Virus record (IMG/VR): IMGVR_UViG_2778261314_000004
Length of the DNA: 32,919 nt
Origin: a virus
Taxonomy: Duplodnaviria; Heunggongvirae; Uroviricota; Caudoviricetes
Direction: 5' to 3' (one strand)
The stretch's first letter is position 1. The number at the start of each line of letters is the position of its first letter. The position numbers and the translations under genes were made by a program. This document shows positions 1,132-26,945 of this stretch, in pieces. Below the pieces are notes generated by a model. It ran no database searches and was not told the origin of the DNA. It saw only the letters and a program-made list of their open reading frames with translations.

Positions 1132-1515
1132 TCATAAGTACCGATATGATTGCGGGGCCGTTATGTTATCACCTAATGAACTTAGATGAAGCGGTTGATC
1201 ATAGATTTTTAGATTGCCAATTTCTATAGCAAAGGCTTTTTCTTTGCTATGAAAATATGAGTCAAAAAATTGTTTGCTGATACCTGCGTATTGGCTTGTT
1301 TTTTCCCATACAATACTTGGCTTGTCTTCTATAACATCTGCAATGTCAAATTCAGCAACAACTTTACCGACAGGCATTGTTGAATAAATAACCACAGATT
1401 TTACATCCGGTTTTTTGAAAATTCCTTTTCGGAATTCAAATTTCTTTGTTCCATTAAGGATTTTTTCTACATGCTCTGGGTTAATTGACAATAATACTTT
1501 CATTGACGCCACCAA
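1132..1515 (-). CDS. Standalone ASCH-domain (PUA-like fold) protein, ~123-127 aa; alternative start at 1503
   Basis: Translation MKVLLSINPEHVEKILNGTKKFEFRKG...VVIYSTMPVGKVVAEFDIADV...AFAIEIGNLKIYDQP follows the pattern I recall for ASCH family proteins. AT-rich codon usage. Overlaps the upstream gene by 23-35 nt. Confidence 0.7.
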   Translation of the reverse strand: MVASMKVLLSINPEHVEKILNGTKKFEFRKGIFKKPDVKSVVIYSTMPVGKVVAEFDIADVIEDKPSIVWEKTSQYAGISKQFFDSYFHSKEKAFAIEIGNLKIYDQPLHLSSLGDNITAPQSYRYL

Positions 1516-2551
1516 GTTTAATAATGCTATTAAACTGTTCGTTTGTTAACTTCATGATCCCCCAGTAAGCTCGCGGGGATAATCCTACTTCAGAAATAAG
1601 TTTAGCACGATTTAGTCTTTTGGGCAAAGCAAGGTTATATGTAAAGCTTATAATATATGGGTATTTTTTTGTTCTATAAAAACTTTTAAGCTCAGATTCT
1701 GTAAAAACAGAATATCTAGAACAGTAATTTAGAAATTCTTTCTCTGTAACGAAAGAGTTTATATTTCTAACTTTTTCTACTACACATAAAGAAGTAGCAA
1801 CAGAACGGTAATATGCAGGCCCTTGATTATCGGATGTTCGGTATATAACGATTATATCGTTTGGCTTCATTAATTCAACATCTGACATGCCACAAATATA
1901 TACTTTTCTAATGCTATTTGCATATGATACATCAGCAACAACATCTGGTGACTCTGTAATTAATTTTGAGTCAGGGAATAAACGAGTATGAAATACGGGG
2001 TATATTGAAAGCAAGAATTTATTTTCACTGCCTCTGTTATTAATAAATGGATAATCTGACAGTATATCGCCCGTAAGAGCATTACTATTCATTTCTTTTA
2101 TTAGTACTCGCTCTACACCATTTTCAGATTCTTTTACTCCAATATCTATAAAGCCATAGATTTTGAATAGTCTAATTAAGTAGTCATGTTTTTCAAAAAC
2201 AGTCACATATATATTGTTAGCATTATTATCTAGAGCGTGATCGAATATTTTTTTTAAAAATCGTTGACCACGAAGAGTTCCTTTTGGATTAAATTTAAAT
2301 GTTCCAACTTTTAGATGAATACCATCAGGAATATTTGGTTTTGTATCTTCAATGATACCTACTTCTGTTTTTAGATACAAAAAACCATCAATTTTATTTT
2401 GTTCATCATAAAGGACATATGCATAATCATTTGATTTACATTTAGAATGGAACCAATCAATAAACCCATGAGCATAATCGGATTTTAAAGAGTCAAAAAA
2501 AACATCAGAAAAATCTACTTGATTAAAAGGTATGTATTTTAAGTTTTCCAT
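1481..2551 (-). CDS. Two-domain protein: N-terminal GNAT-like acetyltransferase fold (degenerate), C-terminal ASCH/PUA-like domain, 356 aa
   Basis: Long ORF in the AT-rich island. N-terminal half has GNAT-like secondary-structure rhythm (HLKVGTFKFNPKGTLRGQRFLKKIFDHALDNNANNIYVTVFE...LFKIYGFIDIG). C-terminal half resembles the ASCH pattern (IIVIYRTSD...SLCVVEKVRNI...FTESELKSFY...YIISFTYNLALPKRL). Start codon lies 2 nt after the stop of the upstream gene. Domain calls are by eye only. Confidence 0.55.
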   Translation of the reverse strand: MENLKYIPFNQVDFSDVFFDSLKSDYAHGFIDWFHSKCKSNDYAYVLYDEQNKIDGFLYLKTEVGIIEDTKPNIPDGIHLKVGTFKFNPKGTLRGQRFLKKIFDHALDNNANNIYVTVFEKHDYLIRLFKIYGFIDIGVKESENGVERVLIKEMNSNALTGDILSDYPFINNRGSENKFLLSIYPVFHTRLFPDSKLITESPDVVADVSYANSIRKVYICGMSDVELMKPNDIIVIYRTSDNQGPAYYRSVATSLCVVEKVRNINSFVTEKEFLNYCSRYSVFTESELKSFYRTKKYPYIISFTYNLALPKRLNRAKLISEVGLSPRAYWGIMKLTNEQFNSIIKLGGVNESIIVN

Positions 2552-2553
2552 GT

Positions 2554-3336
2554 TTACAATCCTATTTTAAAATCACATGATAAGCAAATTGATTTAGTTT
2601 TAGATATGACGGCGAGTGTTTTCCCCGGAGTTTGACAATTAGTACAAACATTCCAATTTTTCGGTTTTCCATCAATCTTATATATGTTGGCTAAAATATC
2701 ATCTAAAGGAAAAAATGTTTTCATCATGTCTATAATGCTTGCTGCATAGTTTTTCTTTGCCTCGACTAATTTTTGTTCAGGCATGTTTTTATCATTTATC
2801 AAGCAATGAACCAGGTTATTAAGAGGCTCTTGATATATCTCCTCTCGAAAAATTAGAAATGCACTTAAAAAGTCTTTACGTATTTCTTTATTATTACTTT
2901 TACCTAAGTGAATTACTTTATTTCTTTCTTTGCGCAAAATATCATAAATTTCATTAAAGCGCGGTGAAAGATTTCGCCCACTGATACTTTGTGCTATTCT
3001 ATGTAGCTCGGTTGCGTCTAATGTTGAACATTCGAAAAATGATTTGTTTTTATAGCAGTCTTTTACTTCTTTTAAAAGTAAATAAACACTATGCTCAGCA
3101 ATTATAGACTTTAGATATATTTCAGCAGAATTAAAGAGTATTACTAAGCCAGATTGAAAGAAACTCTCTTTTTCGGATATTAAGCGTTTCAGTCGTTGTT
3201 CTTCTGTTTCAGGTTGAGCTGGGGCTTGCAATAACTCAATGTCAGAATAAAAGTGTAAGTAGAATGTTTTAATGAAAAACTCAAGGTTCCTTTTGGCATA
3301 AAGAAGCATCTCTTCATTGTTAGGAAGGTCTGTCAT
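2554..3336 (-). CDS. HEPN-like protein (R-N-x3-H motif) with C-terminal CxxC...CxxC zinc ribbon, 260 aa
   Basis: ORF start ATG directly abuts the cI stop codon (TAA-ATG at 3334-3339) with AAGGA Shine-Dalgarno inside the cI 3' end. Contains LRKERNKVIHLG, matching the Rx4-6H HEPN catalytic motif. C-terminus has CTNCQ...CLSCDF. AT-rich. Confidence 0.5.
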   Translation of the reverse strand: MTDLPNNEEMLLYAKRNLEFFIKTFYLHFYSDIELLQAPAQPETEEQRLKRLISEKESFFQSGLVILFNSAEIYLKSIIAEHSVYLLLKEVKDCYKNKSFFECSTLDATELHRIAQSISGRNLSPRFNEIYDILRKERNKVIHLGKSNNKEIRKDFLSAFLIFREEIYQEPLNNLVHCLINDKNMPEQKLVEAKKNYAASIIDMMKTFFPLDDILANIYKIDGKPKNWNVCTNCQTPGKTLAVISKTKSICLSCDFKIGL

Positions 3337-6209: not shown

Positions 6210-6436
6210 TGGCTGATGCAATGGATCTCGTACAGCAGCGCGTTGAAGAAGAACGCCAGCGCCATATCCGTGCTGTCCGTGCCAAAACACCGGGCGTGTC
6301 ACGCGTACTTTGCATTGAATGTGAAGCGCCAATTCCGCCAGCACGACGCCGCGCCATTCCGGGAGTGCAGCTTTGCATTACCTGTCAGGAAATCGCAGAA
6401 CTGAAAGGCAAACATTACAACGGAGGTGCTGTATGA
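6209..6436 (+). CDS. TraR/DksA-family C4 zinc-finger protein, 75 aa
   Basis: CIECEAPIPPARRRAIPGVQLCITCQ gives CxxC-N17-CxxC, typical of the phage/plasmid TraR-like family. Translationally coupled to flanking genes. Confidence 0.75.
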   Translation: MADAMDLVQQRVEEERQRHIRAVRAKTPGVSRVLCIECEAPIPPARRRAIPGVQLCITCQEIAELKGKHYNGGAV

Positions 6437-7290
6437 GCACCATCCTGAAATGGGCGGGAAATAAAACCGCCATTATGGCAGAACTGAAAAAATACCTTCC
6501 TGCTGGCCCGCGACTGGTTGAACCTTTCGCGGGTTCCTGTGCAGTGATGATGGAGACGGATTACCCCAGCTATCTGGTTGCGGATATTAATCCTGATTTA
6601 ATCAACCTCTATAAAAAGGTTGCCGCTGATTGTGAATCGTTTATATCTCGCGCCAGAGTTTTATTTGAGAACGCAAACAGGGAGATGGCTTATTACAACA
6701 TAAGGCAGGAGTTTAATTACTCAACTGAAATTACTGATTTCATGAAAGCGGTATATTTCCTGTATCTCAATCGTCACGGTTACCGTGGTTTATGTCGCTA
6801 TAACAAGAGCGGGTATTTCAACATTCCCTACGGTAATTATAAAAATCCGTATTTCCCTGAAAAAGAAATTCGCGCATTTGCAGAGAAAGCCCAGCGGGCA
6901 ACGTTTATCTGCGCGAGCTTTGATGAAACGCTGGCGATGCTGCAGGTGGGGGATGTGGTGTATTGCGATCCGCCGTATGACGGTACGTTTTCCGGCTATC
7001 ACACTGATGGTTTCACTGAAGATGACCAGTATCACCTGGCATCCATTCTTGAACATCGGTCATCAGAAGGACATCCGGTCATTGTTTCTAACAATGACAC
7101 ATCCCTGATTCGTTCGCTGTATCGCAATTTTACTCACCACTATATCAAGGCAAAACGCAGCATCGGCGTGTCAGCTGGCGAGGGTAAATCTGCAACAGAA
7201 ATCATTGCTGTTTCCGGGCCGAGCTGCTGGTTGGGATTTGATCCTTCGCGTGGCGTGGATAGTTCTGCCGTGTACGGAGTGTGTGTATGA
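6433..7290 (+). CDS. dam: DNA adenine methyltransferase (Dam-like, N6-adenine), ~285 aa
   Basis: Start at internal ATG with GGAGG Shine-Dalgarno. N-terminal ILKWAGNK...EPFAGSCAV (SAM-binding) and catalytic DPPY motif ([10 protein letters not shown]). Confidence 0.9.
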
Positions 7291-9701
7291 GTCATGACGA
7301 TATGAACAATTGCAGCGGCTTTAACGAGGCCGCCGCAGCATTTTCATGGAACGGCTCGAAAAAGGCCATTAACCCTTATCTGGACCCGGCGGAAGTTGCG
7401 CCGGAGTCTGCACTTTCAAACCTGATCACTCTGTACGCTGCCGATAACGAGCAGGAACAACTGCGCCGCGAGGCACTGAGTGAGCAGGTCTGGGAGCGTT
7501 ATTTCTTTAATGAATCCCGTGATCCTGTCCAGCGCGAAATGGAGCAGGATAAGCTCATTAGCCGGGCAAAGCTGGCGCATGAGCAGCAGCGTTTTAATCC
7601 GGACATGGTCATTCTGGCGGACGTAAACGCCCAGCCTTCCCATATCAGCAAGCCGCTGATGCAACGTATTGAATACTTCAGCAGCCTGGGCAGGCCAAAG
7701 GCTTATTCCCGCTATTTGCGTGAGACGATTAAGCCATGTCTGGAGCGACTGGATTGTGTACGTGACAGTCAGCTATCTGTTTCTTTCCGTTTTATGGCAA
7801 GCCATCAAGGGCTGGAGGGGCTGCTGATCCTGCCTGAAATGAGCCAGGATCAGGTGAAACGCCTGTCCACCCTGGTAGCAGCGCATATGAGCATGTGTCT
7901 TGAGGACGCTTGTGGTGATTTGTATGCCACCGATGACGTTAAGCCAGAAGAAATCCGCAAGACATGGGAAAAGGTGGCAGCGGAAACCCTGCGTCTGGAT
8001 GTTATCCCGCCTGCGTTTGAGAAACTTCGTCGGAAAAGAAACCGCCGCAAACCAGTGCCCTATGAACTCATCCCGGGTTCGCTGGCGCGTATGTTGTGTG
8101 CCGACTGGTGGTATCGGAAATTATGGAAGATGCGTTGCGAATGGCGGGAAGAGCAGTTGCGTGCTGTCTGCCTGGTCAGCAAAAAAGCATCCCCCTATGT
8201 CAGCTATGAAGCCGTGATGCATAAACGTGAGCAGCGCCGTAAGTCGCTGGAGTTTTTTCGTTCTCATGAACTGGTGAACGAAGACGGCGACACGCTGGAT
8301 ATGGAAGATGTGGTAAACGCCAGCAGCAGCAACCCGGCGCATCGCCGCAATGAGATGATGGCCTGTGTTAAAGGTCTGGAGCTTATCGCGGAAATGCGCG
8401 GTGACTGCGCCGTTTTCTACACCATTACCTGTCCGTCACGTTTCCATTCCACGCTCAATAACGGCAGACCCAACCCGACCTGGAAAAACGCGACGGTAAG
8501 ACAAAGCAGCGATTATCTGGTCGGTATGTTTGCTGCATTTCGTAAGGCGATGCACAAAGCCGGGTTGCGCTGGTATGGCGTGCGGGTGGCTGAGCCGCAT
8601 CACGACGGCACAGTTCACTGGCACCTGTTGTGTTTCATGCGCAAAAAAGACCGCCGCGCCATTACTGCATTGTTGCGTAAGTTTGCTATCCGTGAAGACC
8701 GCGAGGAGCTGGGCAATAACACGGGGCCGCGCTTTAAGTCTGAGCTGATTAACCCGCGCAAAGGAACGCCGACAAGCTACATAGCGAAATACATCAGTAA
8801 GAACATTGACGGGCGTGGTCTGGCTGGCGAGATCAGCAAGGAAACGGGTAAATCTCTTCGTGATAACGCTGAATACGTGAATGCCTGGGCGTCTTTGCAT
8901 CGTGTTCAGCAATTCCGCTTCTTTGGTATTCCGGGGCGTCAGGCTTACCGTGAACTGCGATTGCTGGCTGGTCAGGCGGCAAGGCAGCAGGGTGACAAAA
9001 AAGCAGGTGTGCCGGTACTGGATAACCCGCGCCTTGATGCCATTCTGGCTGCTGCTGATGCTGGTTGTTTTGCCACCTATATCATGAAGCAGGGAGGTGT
9101 ACTGGTTCCCCGTAAATATCACCTCATCAGAACTGCTTATGAAATTAACGAAGAGCCGACCGCCTATGGCGATCACGGTATTCGTATTTATGGCATCTGG
9201 TCACCCATTGCAGAGGGCAAGATCTGCACTCATGCAGTGAAGTGGAAAATGGTTCGTAAGGCCGTTGACGTTCAGGAGGCGGCAGCCGACCAGGGCGCTT
9301 GCGCCCCTTGGACTCGTGGCAATAACTGTCCCCTTGCTGAAAATTTGAACCAACAGGAGAAAGATAAATCAGCTGATGGGGACCCCAGAACGGACATTAC
9401 CAGCATGGATGACAAGGAGTTGCACGATTACCTGCACAGTATGAGCAAAAAAGAGCGCCGGGAACTGGCAGCAAGGTTACGCCTGGTGAAACCGAAACGG
9501 CGTAAAGACTACAAACAGCGAATTACAGACCATCAGCGACTGCAGCTCGTGTATGAGCTGAAGTCCAGAGGATTTGATGGCAGCGAGAAAGAGGTCGATT
9601 TACTCCTTCGCGGAGGCAGTATTCCGTCAGGAGCAGGCCTGCGTATCTTCTATCGGAACCAGCGTTTGCAGGAAGATGATCAGTGGCGGAACCTGTATTA
9701 A
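7287..9701 (+). CDS. A: Replication initiation protein (P2 gpA / 186 RepA family rolling-circle HUH endonuclease), ~804 aa
   Basis: ATG overlaps the dam stop (ATGA). Large protein with HUH-type motif ([11 protein letters not shown]) and expected size and position for gpA. Confidence 0.9.
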
Positions 9702-9795
9702 TTACGCGGGTTAACAATTCGTGCTCTTAATAATACCAGGCATATCAGGCTGATGAACGTAAAAAAACGTTTTACATCAGTAAGATTATTATATA

Positions 9796-9811
9796 CTGTA
9801 AATATAAACAG
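9796..9811 (+). promoter_or_regulatory. LexA box (SOS operator) CTGTAAATATAAACAG overlapping a sigma70-like promoter
   Basis: Perfect CTGT-N8-ACAG palindrome with AT-rich spacer. TTTACA (-35-like, 9771-9776) and TATACT (-10-like, 9792-9797) are adjacent. Lies upstream of the 62-aa ORF and the dinI-like gene. Confidence 0.6.
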
Positions 9812-9854
9812 TGGTTATACATACAGTATTGCGTGTGGTGTCATAGGAGGAAAG

Positions 9855-10043
9855 ATGCAGGACTATTTTTTGGAGTCTTTGAAGCTCCAGCGCATTGATT
9901 TTTTTCTTAAGCTTGTAGCGGCTAGTGAGTGTAGTGATGAAGAGAAGGGGCTGGCTCTGCAGTGGGTTTCTGAATTGACTGATGAACTCATGGCAAAAAT
10001 CAGAACCCACGAATACAACCGCTCAATGGATGTCATCAGCTGA
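9855..10043 (+). CDS. Hypothetical 62-aa protein, first gene of the LexA-box-controlled operon (candidate antirepressor/SOS effector)
   Basis: ATG at 9855 preceded by GGAGG. AT-rich. Immediately downstream of the LexA box. Confidence 0.5.
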   Translation: MQDYFLESLKLQRIDFFLKLVAASECSDEEKGLALQWVSELTDELMAKIRTHEYNRSMDVIS

Positions 10044-10053
10044 GGTGACTTTT

Positions 10054-10287
10054 ATGCGCATTGAAATAATGATCGATAAAGAGCAGAAGATTAGCCAGTC
10101 TACCCTGGACGCCCTTGAATCCGAGCTTTACCGCAATCTGCGCCCCCTGTATCCCAAAACGGTAATTCGCATTCGCAAAGGTAGCTCTAACGGTGTGGAA
10201 CTAACCGGACTGCAACTGGACGAAGAAAGAAAACAAGTGATGAAAATTATGCAGAAGGTGTGGGAAGACGACAGCTGGCTGCATTAA
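10054..10287 (+). CDS. dinI: DinI-like protein (DNA-damage-inducible protein I family), 77 aa
   Basis: MRIEIMIDKEQKIS...LDALESELYRNL...KIMQKVWEDDSW follows the DinI pattern (MRIEV...DAL..EL.R...E.W..W) and length. Confidence 0.8.
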   Translation: MRIEIMIDKEQKISQSTLDALESELYRNLRPLYPKTVIRIRKGSSNGVELTGLQLDEERKQVMKIMQKVWEDDSWLH

Positions 10288-10422
10288 GAAACGTTGCTGG
10301 CGTCTGAACTTGCTTCTGGCGTCAGCAAGGTTGAACAACGAGCCCTTGCGAGGCGTTAACTCTGTAGTGCATGTCTATGCCGCATGAGATCGCATGATCG
10401 TTTGAGGATCGTTTTTGCTAAG

Positions 10423-10447
10423 GCCCGCCAGAACTGGCGGGCTTTTG
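10423..10447 (+). terminator. Rho-independent terminator downstream of the dinI-like operon
   Basis: GC-rich inverted repeat gcccgccag..ctggcgggc followed by TTTTG. Confidence 0.5.
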
Positions 10448-10491
10448 CGTAGATTATGCAGGTGCATGAAAACCACTACATAAAGCGGGCA

Positions 10492-10510
10492 GGCGTGGCG
10501 GGGATACGAG
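10492..10510. other. cos: Candidate cos site (cohesive-end sequence)
   Basis: ggcgtggcggggatacgag: the first 13 nt match the 19-nt cohesive end I recall for phage 186 (GGCGTGGCGGGGAAAGCAT; P2 is GGCGAGGCGGGGAAAGCAC). Lies in a non-coding stretch between the early region and the Q side. Based on recollection only. Confidence 0.4.
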
Positions 10511-10599
10511 CGCGCGCTGATGGGGGGCGCAGTGCTTTTGGCATAGTTATGAGGTAGAATTTCAAAATACTTTTTAGCGCTGTTGGAGGTATAGACAAA

Positions 10600-11145
10600 A
10601 TGGACGTTATAACTGGAGTTGCAGAGTTTTTTCGAAAAGTACCTGCAGCATTTCTTGTGGCTATTACATGTGTTTTAGGTCTTATACTTTTTCTGCCAGA
10701 CTCTTTGGCAGTAAAAGTGGCTGTTGATGGCTTTCGTAATGAGTATAGGATTTTTATTGGACCTGCATTTTTACTGTCTGTATCTTATTTAGTTGCAAGA
10801 GTCTATCTCTCTTTCTATGACTTACTTGGTGAAAGGCAGGCTAAGAAGGTACGCACTTCCTACCTTGAGAAGCTAACAGCAGAAGAAAAAGGATATTTAA
10901 AGTCTTATATTACCGAAGGTGTTAATTCACTTATGTGTGGGCCTGAGGATGGGGTCATGGGGGGACTTGTGGCTAAGGGGATTACTTATAGAGCCACCAG
11001 TGTTGGGGATATGATCTACGGTTTTGCTTTCAACTTACAGCCATGGGCGCGTGAACATTTAGAGAAAAATAGTCATTTATTAGATGGGGCTATTGGGCGT
11101 GCAATGACTCCAAGAGAAAAATTAAACTTTAGATTGGGACGCTAA
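10600..11145 (+). CDS. Membrane protein, 181 aa, with N-terminal transmembrane segments; possible superinfection-exclusion (SieB-like) cargo protein
   Basis: Hydrophobic stretches AAFLVAITCVLGLILFL and GPAFLLSVSYLVARVYL. Lower G+C than flanking phage genes. Located between the cos-like site and Q, where P2-like phages carry accessory genes. Family assignment is tentative. Confidence 0.45.
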   Translation: MDVITGVAEFFRKVPAAFLVAITCVLGLILFLPDSLAVKVAVDGFRNEYRIFIGPAFLLSVSYLVARVYLSFYDLLGERQAKKVRTSYLEKLTAEEKGYLKSYITEGVNSLMCGPEDGVMGGLVAKGITYRATSVGDMIYGFAFNLQPWAREHLEKNSHLLDGAIGRAMTPREKLNFRLGR

Positions 11146-11175
11146 CCAGTCACACATTACCAATGTGTGACTGGT
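11146..11175. terminator. Hairpin between convergent genes (possible bidirectional terminator)
   Basis: Inverted repeat ccagtcacacatt-acca-atgtgtgactgg followed by a T-rich run, between the membrane-protein gene (+) and Q (-). Confidence 0.4.
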
Positions 11176-11189
11176 GGTGGTTATTTCTT

Positions 11190-12227
11190 TTATTCAATGT
11201 CAAATTTATATGGTTCAAAAGAAATAACCTTTTCCCCCAACCACTCATTTAGTTCTTCGAGTCTTTTTTGTAGCGGTATTAACTCATTACGGACAAAGAC
11301 GCGGCTGGCTTTTTCCACATCACCAAAGCCGCCGGTATTGTTGGGAATAATGCCCATCATCTGCGGCGGTACGCGGTGTGCTGCCATCATGTCATCGCGG
11401 CTCACGTTCTTAATGTTCAGAAATTCATCCTTTGCTGCAACCTCAGACAGTGGGATGATCTGGATGCCGTCTTTTTTACCGTTGGGCGAATACATAAACA
11501 GGTTGCGGAAGTTGCCCGGACCTTTGGCGCTTTTCATCGCGTTGCGGAGGTTGTTCACATCCTCCTGGTTCTGCGCGGCGTCAGTCATATACATGATGAA
11601 GCCTGCATGGCTGCCGTTGATGTAATACTTACGGCGGAACAGCGTGGCGGACTCGTTGAGCAGGGCTGACGGAATGGCAGAAAGATAACCGGGCAGGCCG
11701 TAGATCTCCTGATTAATATCCGGTTCCATCAGATGAAAAATGCTGCCTTTCGTGAACTGATACGGCTGGGTTGTCATACCGTATTGCACAAACCAGTAGG
11801 TATCCAGGTCTAATCCGCGTCGGGTGTATTTTGCCAGCGCAGGTTCAAGGGCGATCACTTCACCGAAGCGGTTCGTGCGTTTCTCCAGATAGGCATTGCC
11901 AAATACCAGATAGTCCTGCACAAAACGCGAAAAAGCCTGCTGGCTGAGCAGAGGATGAGGGATATAGGTACTGGTCAGAATGTTACACTTTACTGCAATC
12001 GGGGAACTGTGATGCACGGCAGCGCGGAAGGTGCGCGCCAGTCCGTTAAAGCTGACGGGAGGCTCATACCAGCGGTCCATCTGTACGCATTCCACATAGT
12101 CCAGCAGTTCACGGCGGTCCAGAACAGGAACGGGATCGCCGAAGCTGAATGCTTCGGCTGTAGTTTGACTTTTAAGCTGGATCTGATTCGTCGCCGCAGC
12201 GCGGTTCTTCTTACTCTTTCCCATCAA
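11190..12227 (-). CDS. Q: Portal protein (P2 gpQ family), 345 aa
   Basis: Size and position match P2 Q (344 aa), convergent and adjacent to the terminase large-subunit gene, overlapping its end by 4 nt. Confidence 0.9.
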   Translation of the reverse strand: MMGKSKKNRAAATNQIQLKSQTTAEAFSFGDPVPVLDRRELLDYVECVQMDRWYEPPVSFNGLARTFRAAVHHSSPIAVKCNILTSTYIPHPLLSQQAFSRFVQDYLVFGNAYLEKRTNRFGEVIALEPALAKYTRRGLDLDTYWFVQYGMTTQPYQFTKGSIFHLMEPDINQEIYGLPGYLSAIPSALLNESATLFRRKYYINGSHAGFIMYMTDAAQNQEDVNNLRNAMKSAKGPGNFRNLFMYSPNGKKDGIQIIPLSEVAAKDEFLNIKNVSRDDMMAAHRVPPQMMGIIPNNTGGFGDVEKASRVFVRNELIPLQKRLEELNEWLGEKVISFEPYKFDIE

Positions 12228-22436: not shown

Positions 22437-23860
22437 GCACAAAATTTTATACCCTGCTGACGGATATTGGCGCGGCGAAACTTGCCAGCGCCGCCGCGCT
22501 CGGTGTGCCGCTAAAAATTACCCATATGGCGGTGGGCGATGGCGGTGGAGTATTGCCAACGCCGGACGCAAAGCAGACGGCACTGGTAAATGAGAAACGC
22601 CGGGCTGCGCTGAATATGCTTTATATCGACCCGCAGAACAGCAGCCAGATTATTGCCGAACAGGTGATCCCTGAAAACGAGGGCGGTTGGTGGATACGTG
22701 AAGTGGGCTTGTTTGATGAGTCCGGGGCATTGATTGCCGTGGGCAACTGCCCGGAAAGCTATAAGCCGCAACTGGCTGAAGGTAGCGGGCGCACTCAGAC
22801 CGTGCGCATGGTGCTGATTACCAGCAGCACGGACAATATCACCCTGAAAATCGACCCTGCTGTAGTGCTGGCAACCCGCAAGTATGTGGATGACAAGGCA
22901 CTGGAGCTGAAGGTGTACGCGGATGATCAGATGGCAAAACATCTTGCCGCACCGGACCCGCATTCACAGTACGCGCCAAAAGCCAGCCCGACATTTACCG
23001 GAACCCCCAAAGCGCCAACGCCAGCGGCGGGGAATAATACCACGCAGGTTGCGACCACTGCGTTTGTACAGGCGGCACTGACGGCCCTTATTAATGGTGC
23101 GCCAGCCACGCTGGACACGCTGAAAGAAATAGCCGCAGCCATTAACAATGATCCGAATTTCAGTACCACCATTAACAATGCGCTGGCACTAAAAGCACCG
23201 TTGTCGAGTCCGGCACTCACCGGAACGCCAACAGCCCCCACGGCGGCGCAGTCGGTCAACAATACACAGATTGCCACTACGGCTTTTGTGAAATCGGCGA
23301 TTGCAGGAATGGTGGGTTCTGCACCTGCTGCACTGGATACACTGAACGAACTGGCGGCGGCACTGGGGAATGATCCGAACTTTGCCACGACAATGCTTAA
23401 TGCGCTGGCAGGTAAACAACCGCTGGACAATACGCTTACCAATTTGAGTGGAAAGGATGTAGCTGGTCTTCTCGCATACCTTGGTTTGGGAGATATCAGT
23501 GCCGCAGGTGTTGCGACAGGTAGTCTTGGTTCAGCGGGATACGCCACATTCCCAATATTAATTAGCGGTGTCCGCCAGACGTTTATTATGCAATGGGGAA
23601 TACTGACACCTCTGAGATCAGGCGGCACTGTGGATATTAATCTGCCGATTGCTTTTCCGACTGCCGCGATGCAGGCATATGCAACACATGATAATACAAC
23701 GCAGATCACCCGCCCGACGGTGTATGCAATAAGTACAACGAGCCGAACCACTATCACTGCTACAGCAATCTGTCTTAATACTGAGTCAGTGGGCGCGGCA
23801 GCAACGCGCAGTAGTGACGAGGTAGCATGTTACGGCCGATATTTTGTAATAGGGTACTGA
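22433..23860 (+). CDS. H: Tail fibre protein (P2 gpH family) with invertible C-terminal variable segment, 475 aa
   Basis: N-terminus MSTKFYTLLTDIGAAKLA...MAVGDGGG and collar repeats (SPALTGTPTAPT...NNTQIATTAFV...LDTLNELAAALGNDPNFATTM) are typical of P2 H-like fibres. A crossover site lies at codons ~346-354. Confidence 0.85.
   Translation: MSTKFYTLLTDIGAAKLASAAALGVPLKITHMAVGDGGGVLPTPDAKQTALVNEKRRAALNMLYIDPQNSSQIIAEQVIPENEGGWWIREVGLFDESGALIAVGNCPESYKPQLAEGSGRTQTVRMVLITSSTDNITLKIDPAVVLATRKYVDDKALELKVYADDQMAKHLAAPDPHSQYAPKASPTFTGTPKAPTPAAGNNTTQVATTAFVQAALTALINGAPATLDTLKEIAAAINNDPNFSTTINNALALKAPLSSPALTGTPTAPTAAQSVNNTQIATTAFVKSAIAGMVGSAPAALDTLNELAAALGNDPNFATTMLNALAGKQPLDNTLTNLSGKDVAGLLAYLGLGDISAAGVATGSLGSAGYATFPILISGVRQTFIMQWGILTPLRSGGTVDINLPIAFPTAAMQAYATHDNTTQITRPTVYAISTTSRTTITATAICLNTESVGAAATRSSDEVACYGRYFVIGY
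23469..23494 (+). repeat. Inversion crossover site 1 (hix/gix/cix-like, 26 bp) inside the tail-fibre gene
   Basis: ttctcgcatacc-tt-ggtttgggagat: 12-2-12 architecture resembling hix (TTCTTGAAAACC-AA-GGTTTTTGATAA). Its right half is repeated in inverted orientation at 24983-24994. Confidence 0.6.
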
Positions 23861-23861
23861 A

Positions 23862-24296
23862 ATGAATATGAAATATTTCTCTGCATCTGAAAATGCGTTT
23901 TATGCCGGAGAGCTTAAAGAAAGCTACATCGCAGCAGACTCATGGCCTTCTGATGCCTTGGAAGTTGATGAAAGTTTGTATCTTGATTTTATTGGTGAGC
24001 CGCCAGCAGGTAAGTATCGCGGTGTAAATGATGCAGGAATGCCATGCTGGCTTGAAATTCCCCCGACCACCCCAGAACAAATGGTATCGAATGCCCAAAA
24101 TATGCGGCAACAGCTCATTGATGAGGCCATTCTCTACATGAATAACAGGCAATGGCCCGGTAAAGCGGTGCTGGGACGTCTGACAGAAGCGGAGAAGGAG
24201 CAATACAATCTGTGGCTGGATTATCTGGGCGCACTGGAGGCTGTAGACACATCCAGCGCACCGGATATCAACTGGCCTACCCCTCCGGCGATGTAG
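23862..24296 (+). CDS. G: Tail fibre assembly chaperone (P2 gpG / Tfa family), 144 aa
   Basis: Directly follows the fibre gene. Shares the Tfa-like N-terminal pattern with the minus-strand paralogue. Confidence 0.75.
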   Translation: MNMKYFSASENAFYAGELKESYIAADSWPSDALEVDESLYLDFIGEPPAGKYRGVNDAGMPCWLEIPPTTPEQMVSNAQNMRQQLIDEAILYMNNRQWPGKAVLGRLTEAEKEQYNLWLDYLGALEAVDTSSAPDINWPTPPAM

Positions 24297-24699
24297 GCCA
24301 GATAACATCAGGAGCTGTTGATACGTCGACGGCTTTCACTGCTTTTTTATACGCCATCCACTCAGACAACCTCTCTTTGTCTTCATCACTGATATCGCCG
24401 AGCATTAATTCAACCCGCCAGTCGACGGTTACTTCGTCAATCTGCTGTAGCCGTTGCTGGCGGTATTGTTCGGCAATCTCAGTCTGTTCCTCATGTGTTG
24501 GTTGGGGAATATCTCCCCAAACTGGCAGCCCATTATCGCCAGGAATACGCATCTGGTTGGTTGGTGGTACCCCCGTAAACTCCGTAAATACAGAGTCGTC
24601 AATATCAATGCAGTCTGTTGGCCACATGCCGTTTTTTTTGTATTCGCCGCGAAGGTGTGTTGGGTAGAATTTATTTTTTAATGCGTAGTAATTGTACAT
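24277..24699 (-). CDS. Alternative tail fibre assembly chaperone (Tfa'), 140 aa, inverted orientation
   Basis: Minus-strand paralogue of the plus-strand tfa (PPTNQMRIPGDNGLPVWGDIPQPTHEEQ... versus PPAGKYRGVNDAGMPCWLEIPPTTPEQ...); convergent with it. Confidence 0.7.
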   Translation of the reverse strand: MYNYYALKNKFYPTHLRGEYKKNGMWPTDCIDIDDSVFTEFTGVPPTNQMRIPGDNGLPVWGDIPQPTHEEQTEIAEQYRQQRLQQIDEVTVDWRVELMLGDISDEDKERLSEWMAYKKAVKAVDVSTAPDVIWPTSPEG

Positions 24700-24700
24700 A

Positions 24701-24996
24701 TTAAAATCCTATTGCTATCCAGTGACAGGCATTTGAACTGGGTGAGCCGCTTTTGAATAGCGTCATGCTCTCGGGGGAGTACGAACCAACGTTAACTGTC
24801 GTTCCGGGCTGAGCGTCCCACGAGGCAAGGCCTAAAAGCAGGCCATTAGGAAACGGAACATTAAACGTTTTCGTGTACGTTGAAGCAGAAAAAAACGGGA
24901 CTACACCGATCTGGATAATCAGTGTCTTTTCACCGATTGGCAGATAAATAACGGAATCCCCGGCGTTGAGGCTTTGTAGCGTTCCTCCCAAACCAA
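24701..24996 (-). CDS. Alternative tail-fibre C-terminal segment (Sv'-like, promoterless; expressed only after inversion fuses it to H)
   Basis: Minus-strand ORF whose 5' end coincides with crossover site 2. It encodes ...GLGGTLQSLNAGDS..., sharing the GLG junction with H (AYLGLGDIS). Confidence 0.55.
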
Positions 24997-25008
24997 CGTT
25001 TAAGAAAA
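24983..25008 (-). repeat. Inversion crossover site 2 (inverted relative to site 1)
   Basis: Reverse complement reads ttttcttaaacg-tt-ggtttgggagga; the left half closely matches the hix half-site TTCTTGAAAACC and the right half matches site 1. Confidence 0.6.
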
Positions 25009-25063
25009 TGCAGAGGTAACGGCTAACTGGCATCATCCCCGGTATTTATTCAGGGGATTGATC

Positions 25064-25621
25064 ATGCTTATTGGCTATGTACGCGTGTCAACAAATGACC
25101 AGAACACCGATTTGCAACGTAATGCACTGAACTGCGCGGGATGTGAGCGGATTTTTGAGGATAAAATCAGTGGCACTAAGTCCGACAGACCGGGGCTGAA
25201 AAAACTGCTCAGGACACTATCGGCAGGAGACACGCTGGTCGTCTGGAAGCTGGACAGGTTGGGGCGCAGTATGCGGCATCTTGTTACGCTGATAGAAGAG
25301 TTGCGCCAGCGTGGCGTGAATTTCCGAAGCCTGACTGACAGTATTGATACCAGTACCCCAATGGGCCGTTTCTTTTTTCATGTCATGGGTGCCCTGGCTG
25401 AAATGGAACGCGAACTGATAGTTGAACGCACTATGGCAGGGCTGGCTGCAGCTCGTGCCAAAGGCAGAGTAGGTGGACGCCGTCCTAAGTTGACCACCGA
25501 ACAGTGGGCACAGATTGGACGTTTACTCGAGGCCGGAGAATCAAGACAGCGTATTGCACTGATTTTTGACGTGGGCGTTGCTACCATTTATAGAAAATTT
25601 CCGGCGAATAAGAGCAATTAA
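25064..25621 (+). CDS. Serine DNA invertase (Hin/Gin/Cin/Pin family), ~185 aa
   Basis: MLIGYVRVSTNDQNTDLQRNAL... with catalytic Ser in YVRVSTNDQ and a C-terminal HTH. AGGGGA Shine-Dalgarno. Adjacent to the invertible segment. Confidence 0.9.
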   Translation: MLIGYVRVSTNDQNTDLQRNALNCAGCERIFEDKISGTKSDRPGLKKLLRTLSAGDTLVVWKLDRLGRSMRHLVTLIEELRQRGVNFRSLTDSIDTSTPMGRFFFHVMGALAEMERELIVERTMAGLAAARAKGRVGGRRPKLTTEQWAQIGRLLEAGESRQRIALIFDVGVATIYRKFPANKSN

Positions 25622-25678
25622 TCGCCCTGAATCAGCATTCTTTTGATTTTTCCTGTAAGCGGACAAATACCGTCATTT

Positions 25679-25696
25679 TGTGTGAATAACGGCACA
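25679..25696 (+). promoter_or_regulatory. Ogr-type late-promoter activator site TGT-N12-ACA upstream of FI (pF)
   Basis: tgtgtgaataacggcaca, about 85 bp upstream of the FI start codon. Confidence 0.55.
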
Positions 25697-25772
25697 ACTG
25701 CGATTAGCTGTTTGTCAGGCACAATCACTTCAACATAGGGCGAAGCCTAATCCAATCAGGAGGTTTGCCACT

Positions 25773-26945
25773 ATGGCTCAGGATTACCACCACGGGGTGC
25801 GCGTTGTTGAAGTCAACGAAGGCACCCGATCCATTACCACGGTGAGCACCGCCATCGTGGGTATGGTCTGCACGGGCGATGATGCCGATGCAAAAATGTT
25901 CCCTCTTAATAAACCCGTGCTGATCACTGATGTGCTGACTGCCAGCGGTAAAGCGGGTGAGTCCGGTACTCTGGCCCGTTCGCTGGATGCCATCGCTGAC
26001 CAGGCAAAACCCGTGACTGTTGTTGTGCGTGTGCCGCAGGGTGAAACGGAAGACGAAACCACGACCAATATCATCGGCGCAGTGACCGCTGAAGGTAAAA
26101 AAACTGGCATGAAAGCCCTGTTATCTGCCCAGTCACAGCTCGGCGTTAAACCACGCATTCTGGGTGTACCTGGTCACGACACCAAGGCGGTAGCTACTGA
26201 GTTGCTGAGCGTAGCGCAAAGCCTGCGTGGGTTTGCTTACCTGTCAGCGTATGGCTGCAAGACAGTGCAGGAGGCGATCACTTACCGCGAAAACTTCAGC
26301 CAGCGCGAAGGGATGCTGATCTGGCCTGACTTTACTGGCTGGGACACGGTGCTGAATGCCGAAGCAACGGCATATGCCACCGCCCGTGCGCTTGGTCTGC
26401 GCGCCAAAATTGACGAGCAGACCGGATGGCACAAAAGCCTGTCCAACGTGGGCGTGAACGGTGTCACCGGAATTTCTGCAGATGTGTTCTGGGATCTGCA
26501 GGACCCGGCAACCGATGCAGGTCTGCTGAACCAGAACGACGTCACCACGCTTGTGCGTAAAGACGGTTTCCGCTTCTGGGGTTCCCGCTGCCTGAGTGAT
26601 GACCCGCTCTTTGCCTTCGAAAACTACACCCGCACGGCGCAGGTGCTGATGGACACGATGGCAGAAGCACACATGTGGGCGGTGGATAAACCGCTTAACC
26701 CGTCGCTGGCCCGCGACATTATCGAAGGTATCCGCGCCAAAATGCGCAGCCTGGTCAGTCAGGGCTATCTCATTGGTGGTGATTGCTGGCTGGATGAGTC
26801 GGTGAACGACAAAGACACGCTGAAAGCCGGAAAACTCACCATCGACTACGACTACACGCCAGTGCCGCCACTTGAAAACCTGATGCTGCGTCAGCGCATC
26901 ACCGATCAGTACCTGGTGAATTTCGCCAGCCAGGTCAGCGCGTAA
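25773..26945 (+). CDS. FI: Tail sheath protein (P2 gpFI family), 390 aa
   Basis: Size close to P2 FI (396 aa). Position at the start of the FI-FII-E-T-U-D operon. Confidence 0.9.

Follow-up and report, generated by a model that had tools for sequence, protein, structure and literature searches.

Features of the locus

The window, by which we mean the whole 32,919-nt stretch of DNA that was analysed, is a complete P2/186-like prophage running from integrase through ogr, in an E. coli site between rcdA/ybjJ and ybjL; a query spanning positions 10300-11250 showed 100% identity to NZ_AP022120.1 and to further genomes. Around cos, the order of features is gpA, a 62-aa ORF, a DinI-like gene, a hairpin, cos, an ORF of the sieB family, a second hairpin, portal gene Q and terminase gene P. 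The features to which we refer below are as follows.

7281-9701: gpA, the replication endonuclease gene
9855-10287, plus strand: a hypothetical ORF of 62 aa and a DinI-like gene of 77 aa that matches Pfam DinI at E=7e-23
About 10420-10448, plus strand: intrinsic-terminator hairpin GGCCCGCCAGAACTGGCGGGCTTTT, after the DinI-like gene and before cos
10492-10510, no strand assigned: cohesive-end sequence of cos, GGCGTGGCGGGGATACGAG, a homologue of the 19-nt cosL found in P2 and 186
10555-10560, plus strand: TAGAAT, a candidate -10-like hexamer and putative promoter element of the sieB-family gene
10585-10589, plus strand: Shine-Dalgarno sequence GGAGG, 10 nt 5' of the ATG, read from the sequence
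10600-11145, plus strand: sieB-family gene, 181 aa, an ORF with an ATG start
11145-11175, plus strand: terminator hairpin of the sieB-family gene, with a 14-bp stem and a T-rich tail, found by terminator scan
11190-12227, minus strand: portal gene, homologue of P2 Q and 186 W, an ORF annotated as phage portal protein

A preliminary description of this DNA had proposed a 181-aa ORF at 10600-11145, and this ORF is real, with an ATG at position 10600 preceded by GGAGG and with a PGAP start call that is identical to the ATG in the ORF list; the frame is intact and the Shine-Dalgarno sequence is strong. The description had also claimed a G+C content below that of the flanking structural genes, which is indeed the case (0.403 vs. 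0.506 in Q and 0.564 in P, with gpA at 0.53 and the window mean at 0.514), and the same bias is seen in GC3, at 0.30 in the sieB-family ORF vs. 0.58-0.60 in gpA and Q. About 8.6% of equal-sized segments of the window match or undercut the G+C of this ORF, nearly all of them coming from the other cargo island near the integrase.

Hairpins had been predicted on both sides of the gene, and strong ones are found on both sides, the upstream one being located before cos. The hairpin at 10420-10448 (dG -23.7 kcal/mol, z -4.8) is followed by TTTT, with 0 of 200 shuffled sequences being as stable; because it precedes cos and terminates the DinI-like gene, it bounds the module from the outside, and a terminator of this strength would isolate the sieB-family gene from the DinI-like transcript. 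The hairpin at 11145-11175 has a dG of -25.6 kcal/mol (z -6.6) on the plus strand and -21.2 kcal/mol (z -5.6) on the minus strand, occupies the tQ/tW position of P2/186 between convergent genes, and has a counterpart at the same place in diverged copies of the locus. Beyond it lies the portal gene, which is convergent with the sieB-family gene and marks where the cargo slot ends on the right.

In every E. coli prophage inspected, the 62-aa ORF and the DinI-like gene are annotated with identical or near-identical protein accessions; on that account, they seem to be core genes of the lineage and not cargo. In phage 186, the corresponding interval is occupied by tum, an antirepressor gene under SOS control. 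Directly 5' of gpA, and overlapping it, is a DNA adenine methylase gene (6433-7290, plus strand).

No sigma-70 promoter was detected by a consensus scan of both strands over 9700-11400. The hexamer TAGAAT, which we regard as the putative -10 element of the sieB-family gene, is kept in the copies with 78% identity (loci L010 and L015) and reads TACACT in Citrobacter (locus L014); inspection by eye of the region 5' of it revealed no convincing -35 or extended -10 element. An Rfam scan of 9600-11400 at E<=1 returned chance-level matches far below the gathering scores, with no sas-like or other RNA among them.

The cos site and the interval before the portal gene

The window has a single copy of the cos motif GGCGTGGCGGGG, at 10492-10503, where 0 would be expected by chance, and the window cos aligns with the annotated cosL of both P2 and 186. 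In these two phages, 186-195 nt separate cosL from the portal stop codon, and the tQ/tW terminator is the only feature in between, in agreement with the earlier statement that P2-type genomes go from cos straight into Q; in the window, the distance from cos to the portal stop is about 700 nt. Homology to P2/186 past the 19-nt end runs for about 20-30 nt further, to about 10531-10540, so that the similarity on the portal side consists of the cohesive end plus this short stretch (GCGCGCTGA.GG.GG.GC, window 10492-10540). The early end of this similarity suggests that very little portal-side sequence may be needed for cos function in the lineage of the window.

Assignment to the SieB family

The product of the ORF had tentatively been likened to SieB, and the profile search supports this guess. 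The Pfam SieB model PF14163 matched the 181-aa protein with an E-value of 4.5e-25 and 88.4 bits (gathering cutoff 26), the match extending over profile positions 2-146 of 147 and protein residues 20-157. The same model matches lambda SieB (1e-29), P22 SieB (4e-29) and SPbeta YopH (3e-44) as well as 31 of the 31 aligned homologues, and the RefSeq entry for the window protein, WP_021548667.1, is likewise named "superinfection exclusion B family protein". With a length of 181 aa (184 aa for lambda SieB and 192 aa for P22 SieB), the window protein has an identity of 17-22% to lambda and P22 SieB and 27-30% to YopH of the Bacillus phage SPbeta, and its alignment with all three is collinear across both hydrophobic segments and an LTxEE...L motif. 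It differs from lambda and P22 SieB in having an additional conserved C-terminal motif, NLQPWAREHL..N.HLLDG, which is absent from both and which SPbeta YopH shares in the form IQPWAR.YL.KN.HLL. Among 50,697 deposited phage genomes searched with tblastn, matches were confined to SPbeta (two records) and an Akkermansia phage, the best being SPbeta YopH (E=4e-14, 28% identity over 92% of the protein). Judged by these sequence comparisons, membership in the SieB family is secure, with the window protein falling into a distant, YopH-like branch.

Other collections added little to this assignment. The window protein had no match in PHROGs or PADLOC-DB v2 and no model in NCBIfam, where the sole match (TrmB, E=0.13) is meaningless; a scan of 31 members for a second Pfam domain in the C-terminal half gave sporadic weak matches only, and a database search started from a mixed alignment, to which lambda SieB, P22 SieB and YopH had been added, returned nothing but the same close subfamily among its best 120 matches.

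Homologues of about 180 aa with 50-60% identity are common across Gammaproteobacteria, including those outside Enterobacteriaceae. When 1.84 billion cluster representatives, each standing for a cluster at 50% identity, were searched with a profile, 2162 matched at E<=1e-3 and 1078 of these reached E<=1e-10; nearly all were 160-190 aa long. In the 31-sequence alignment of the subfamily, 31 columns are invariant and 37 further columns are nearly invariant; E96, D117/G118, N145 and W149/R151 are among the invariant residues of the C-terminal domain. In Halomonas, Pseudomonas and Vibrio, the homologue is found alone in small variable islands, in the company of genes such as CcdAB, an SLFN-like helicase, an integrase and HipA, and with no neighbour conserved among them; the lack of a conserved neighbour in these islands suggests that the sieB homologue works as a single gene.

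Like the window gene, lambda and P22 sieB are single genes of temperate phages, convergent with or opposite to their neighbours. The loci are different, with lambda and P22 sieB located between N/gene 24 and ral in the early-left operon, in contrast to the window gene, which in its P2-like phage is flanked by cos and the portal gene. SPbeta YopH, in turn, comes from another type of phage with a Firmicute host, where its gene lies among yop genes near the arbitrium locus, and is annotated as a SieB-family protein that is uncharacterised. A functional analogy can be drawn to lambda RexB and other small abortive-infection effectors of the membrane, which are prophage-encoded inner-membrane proteins tied to arrest of the infected cell; they have no sequence relationship to the window protein, and the Rex system requires the sensor RexA whereas the window gene lacks a conserved partner.

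Predicted structure and membrane topology

The claim of two N-terminal transmembrane helices followed by a soluble C-terminal domain agrees with both hydropathy and AlphaFold2 predictions. On a 19-residue Kyte-Doolittle plot, values rise above 1.4 in two stretches. The first, ~7-45, has its maximum of 2.7 at 14-32 and the second, ~50-71, reaches 1.66, which places the two hydrophobic segments at residues ~14-38 and ~50-71. A first AlphaFold2 model built on 31 sequences resolved the N-terminal helices and had a pLDDT of 40-53 in the C-terminal domain; this model was set aside for the low C-terminal pLDDT, and a model built on 122 sequences (pLDDT 86.9, pTM 0.65) was used in its place. The latter predicts an amphipathic helix at residues 2-12, a first transmembrane helix at 16-31, then a short loop helix, and a single long helix at 43-90 that holds the second transmembrane segment and extends beyond the membrane, the loop between the two transmembrane helices being ~10-18 residues. 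Residues 94-161 are predicted to form a compact alpha/beta domain comprising a helix (94-105), a strand (110-113), a second helix (118-125), a beta-hairpin (129-137 and 141-146) and a terminal helix (148-161).

Given two membrane passes and a C-terminal domain of 110 residues, the protein is likely to adopt an N-in/C-in topology, which would leave the C-terminal domain in the cytoplasm. The predicted fold of this domain bears a weak resemblance to MarR-type DNA-binding domains, and the model is suggestive of a membrane-tethered, winged-helix-like domain. A profile search of PDB sequences returned noise only, with Old Yellow Enzyme as the best match (E=0.22).

The cargo slot in related prophages

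Coverage of at least 80% of the module was found in 21 of 5426 complete E. coli genomes, and 1277 E. coli genomes match part of the query; the shared part, in the phage records and in one partial match inspected, is the cos-proximal region. A variant ~78% identical at the nucleotide level is present in three genomes among the matches listed.

Loci L008, L009, L010, L019, L020, L014 and L015 were compared with window positions 10300-10520. Among E. coli prophages encoding WP_021548667.1, it is the gpA side of cos that differs, with nothing extra in the window, an HNH endonuclease in L009, a 141-aa ORF on the opposite strand in L019 and two hypothetical genes in L020; in L010, the ~78% variant lies behind a DUF4145 gene. 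In Citrobacter (67% identity) and in a contig (78%) with a protein cluster that bears the NCBI name Scandinavium, the homologue stands directly against a P2-type portal gene, and loci of these two types harbor a Vgb-lyase-like gene or an AIPR gene between gpA and the SieB homologue. The cos site is 5' of the SieB start in the window, in L009, in L010 and in the Citrobacter and Scandinavium-type loci, with a spacing between cos and the SieB start of 104-108 nt at every locus measured (L009 excluded). In another E. coli prophage, a ParA gene and then a SIR2 family gene are found 3' of cos in place of SieB. The occupancy of the slot varies, then, among related prophages, from empty in P2 and 186 to ParA with SIR2, SieB or the 78% SieB variant, and the view of the gene as cargo is borne out by relatives that hold other cargo or nothing at the portal-side slot.

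Recognizing that the cargo on the gpA side varies while SieB stays 3' of cos, we surmise that the hotspot may comprise two slots split by cos, with SieB in the portal-side one; the portal-side slot may have a stable SieB resident while the gpA-side slot may be home to fast-swapping cargo. The P2 genes old and tin belong to the same gpA-gpQ hotspot as the window gene and encode unrelated proteins. Since the annotated cos-Q interval of P2 holds only tQ, old and tin must be on the gpA side of cos, unlike the window gene, which is on the portal side and hence at the left end of the packaged genome. Cargo of P2-like phages is, in other words, found on both sides of cos.

Analysis of substitutions yielded a dN/dS of 0.07, and of 0.04 for a closer pair, with dS at about 2-2.2 or not computable (saturated); all copies have a G+C of 0.40-0.42. 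The sieB-family gene is under strong purifying selection, and the comparison of loci indicates that it is a long-standing resident of the lineage. The preliminary description had the gene "inserted" between cos and the portal gene, and while this position is correct, the word overstates recency, given that the same position is occupied in several genera and that synonymous sites are saturated; a recent insertion was rejected on the basis of the same arrangement in several genera and the saturated dS.

Earlier annotation and the published hotspot

The window gene is already known, in that its family is named in RefSeq, it lies in a published hotspot and its accession is in the catalogue of that hotspot. 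Rousset et al. 2022 (PMC9122126) described the cos-proximal gpA-gpQ region of P2-like phages as an anti-phage hotspot, entered WP_021548667 as "SieB" in supplementary file 6 and catalogued arrangements that include "hypothetical + SieB + DinI"; the accession is not among the systems which the main text of that study describes as cloned and tested (PMC9122126). Vassallo et al. 2022 (PMC9519451) independently located four defence systems in the interval that the replication endonuclease and portal genes of P2 enclose, and a 2026 preprint treats the gpA-gpQ locus as the main P2 defence hotspot. The order of gpA (7281-9701), cos (10492-10510), the sieB-family gene (10600-11145) and the portal gene (11190-12227) places the window gene within this hotspot. 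The genome annotation is unchanged by our analysis, as the family name was already right and the hotspot already published. In the literature searched, there was no report of any member of the YopH-like SieB subfamily having been tested for function.

Proposed function and alternatives

We propose that the gene is probably a self-contained cargo module of the SieB family in this P2/186-like prophage and that, by analogy with its characterised relatives, abortive infection is its most likely function. P22 SieB, which the prophage produces, brings macromolecular synthesis to a stop partway through the lytic growth of a superinfecting phage (Leavitt 2024, PMC10883804). The gene itself, its family, architecture and position, the variable occupancy of the slot and the purifying selection follow from the data above, whereas expression in the lysogen, membrane topology, the anti-phage phenotype, its trigger and the effector step are what we infer. 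A lysogen would make the SieB-family protein from its own weak promoter, and the protein would enter the inner membrane via a hairpin of its N-terminal helices, its N and C termini probably both lying on the cytoplasmic side. The conserved, winged-helix-like C-terminal domain may then sense a product or an intermediate of the lytic programme of a heterologous phage, upon which the protein would shut down cellular macromolecular synthesis in the manner of P22 SieB, and the infected cell would yield no phage. In such a scheme, the C-terminal domain would act as the sensor and the membrane hairpin as the effector, with abortive infection, and not a block in DNA entry, as the outcome. Because the window protein has just 17-22% identity to the tested SieB proteins of lambda and P22, the function could differ within the family.

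In P22, self-protection against SieB is provided by Esc together with the sas antisense RNA (PMC12197685). P22 sieB has an annotated in-frame internal start at codon 25, from which the N-terminally truncated Esc polypeptide is made, and the sas RNA switches translation. Neither was detected for the window gene: an Esc-like internal start was rejected, as ATG codons after the start are lacking up to codon 112 and the GTG at codon 20 is not preceded by a Shine-Dalgarno sequence, and for a sas-like antisense promoter, a consensus scan of the antisense strand found none and Rfam gave no match. The Esc/sas arrangement is a P22-specific feature and does not define the SieB family.

Foremost among the alternatives, and still an unlikely one, is that the protein prevents DNA injection as an entry-blocking exclusion protein in the manner of P22 SieA or T4 Imm/Sp. 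A small, prophage-encoded inner-membrane protein with a predicted transmembrane hairpin would fit this role, as would a family name that says "superinfection exclusion", and P22 SieA is itself an inner-membrane injection blocker (PMC10883804). The homology, however, is to SieB and not to SieA, and SieB acts after entry, midway through the lytic cycle (PMC10883804). In addition, two-thirds of the window protein consist of a conserved soluble domain which is probably cytoplasmic and suits intracellular sensing, while the ~10-18-residue loop between the helices leaves little for contact with an injection apparatus.

A role in the life cycle of the prophage itself, whether in lysis timing, as a packaging anchor near cos or in regulation by a membrane-tethered winged helix, ranks next and appears improbable to us. 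In its favor are the spacing of 104-108 nt from cos, which is fixed across E. coli, Citrobacter and the Scandinavium-type contig despite saturated dS, and the weak likeness of the C-terminal domain to MarR-type DNA-binding domains. Yet P2, 186 and most related prophages do without the gene, which is dispensable by that measure, and close homologues are found alone in chromosomal islands without phage genes. The foreign base composition, the terminator of its own and the presence of a full P2-type lysis cassette elsewhere in the prophage also speak against such a role.

That the gene is a passenger without present function, neutral or in decay, as might be read from the absence of a promoter consensus in our scan and from its rarity in E. 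coli (21 of 5426 genomes), is the least probable of the three, and very improbable in the light of its intact frame, strong Shine-Dalgarno sequence, dN/dS of 0.04-0.07, 31 invariant and 37 nearly invariant columns in the 31-sequence alignment, and recurrence of WP_021548667.1 in prophages with differing neighbouring cargo. A structural or packaging role, which the position next to cos and the portal gene had brought to mind, was rejected, as no such homology was found, P2 and 186 are without the gene and homologues exist outside phages; the cargo reading, for which clear homology to a structural or packaging protein had been named beforehand as refuting, stands.

Returning to abortive infection as the preferred function, we also entertain a wider and rather doubtful possibility, namely that YopH-like SieB proteins constitute a widespread abortive-infection system that operates with one gene and is not represented in PADLOC-DB v2, along with the two-slot arrangement of the hotspot. 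We speculate that the cytoplasmic MarR-like domain could, at the membrane, bind the DNA or a protein of the phage, with the transmembrane hairpin then becoming a depolarising or toxic effector. Being compact, partner-less and highly conserved, with a confident model and a natural E. coli host, the YopH-like subfamily offers a convenient entry point to SieB.

Other cargo and variable regions of the prophage

A second cargo island is located at 1132-3336 on the minus strand, between the integrase and the cI repressor, and has the lowest G+C in the window (0.27 near 2061). It encodes a 123-aa ASCH-domain protein that matches the PADLOC candidate PDC-M11B (E=4.5e-48), a 356-aa protein without a Pfam domain that matches PDC-M11A (E=2.4e-130) and a 260-aa protein with a weak DUF3644 match. 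From these matches, the island is a plausible candidate for a defence system, placed in the hotspot that P2-like phages have on the int side.

The early operon holds a TraR/DksA-family gene and a Fil-family gene. Elsewhere in the prophage, a gene for a recombinase family protein (about 25064-25621, plus strand) adjoins the tail-fibre genes (about 23250-26900), its neighbours being a tail-fibre gene, a gp53-like fragment and two tail-fibre assembly genes that face opposite ways, a layout that is typical of an invertible host-range segment.
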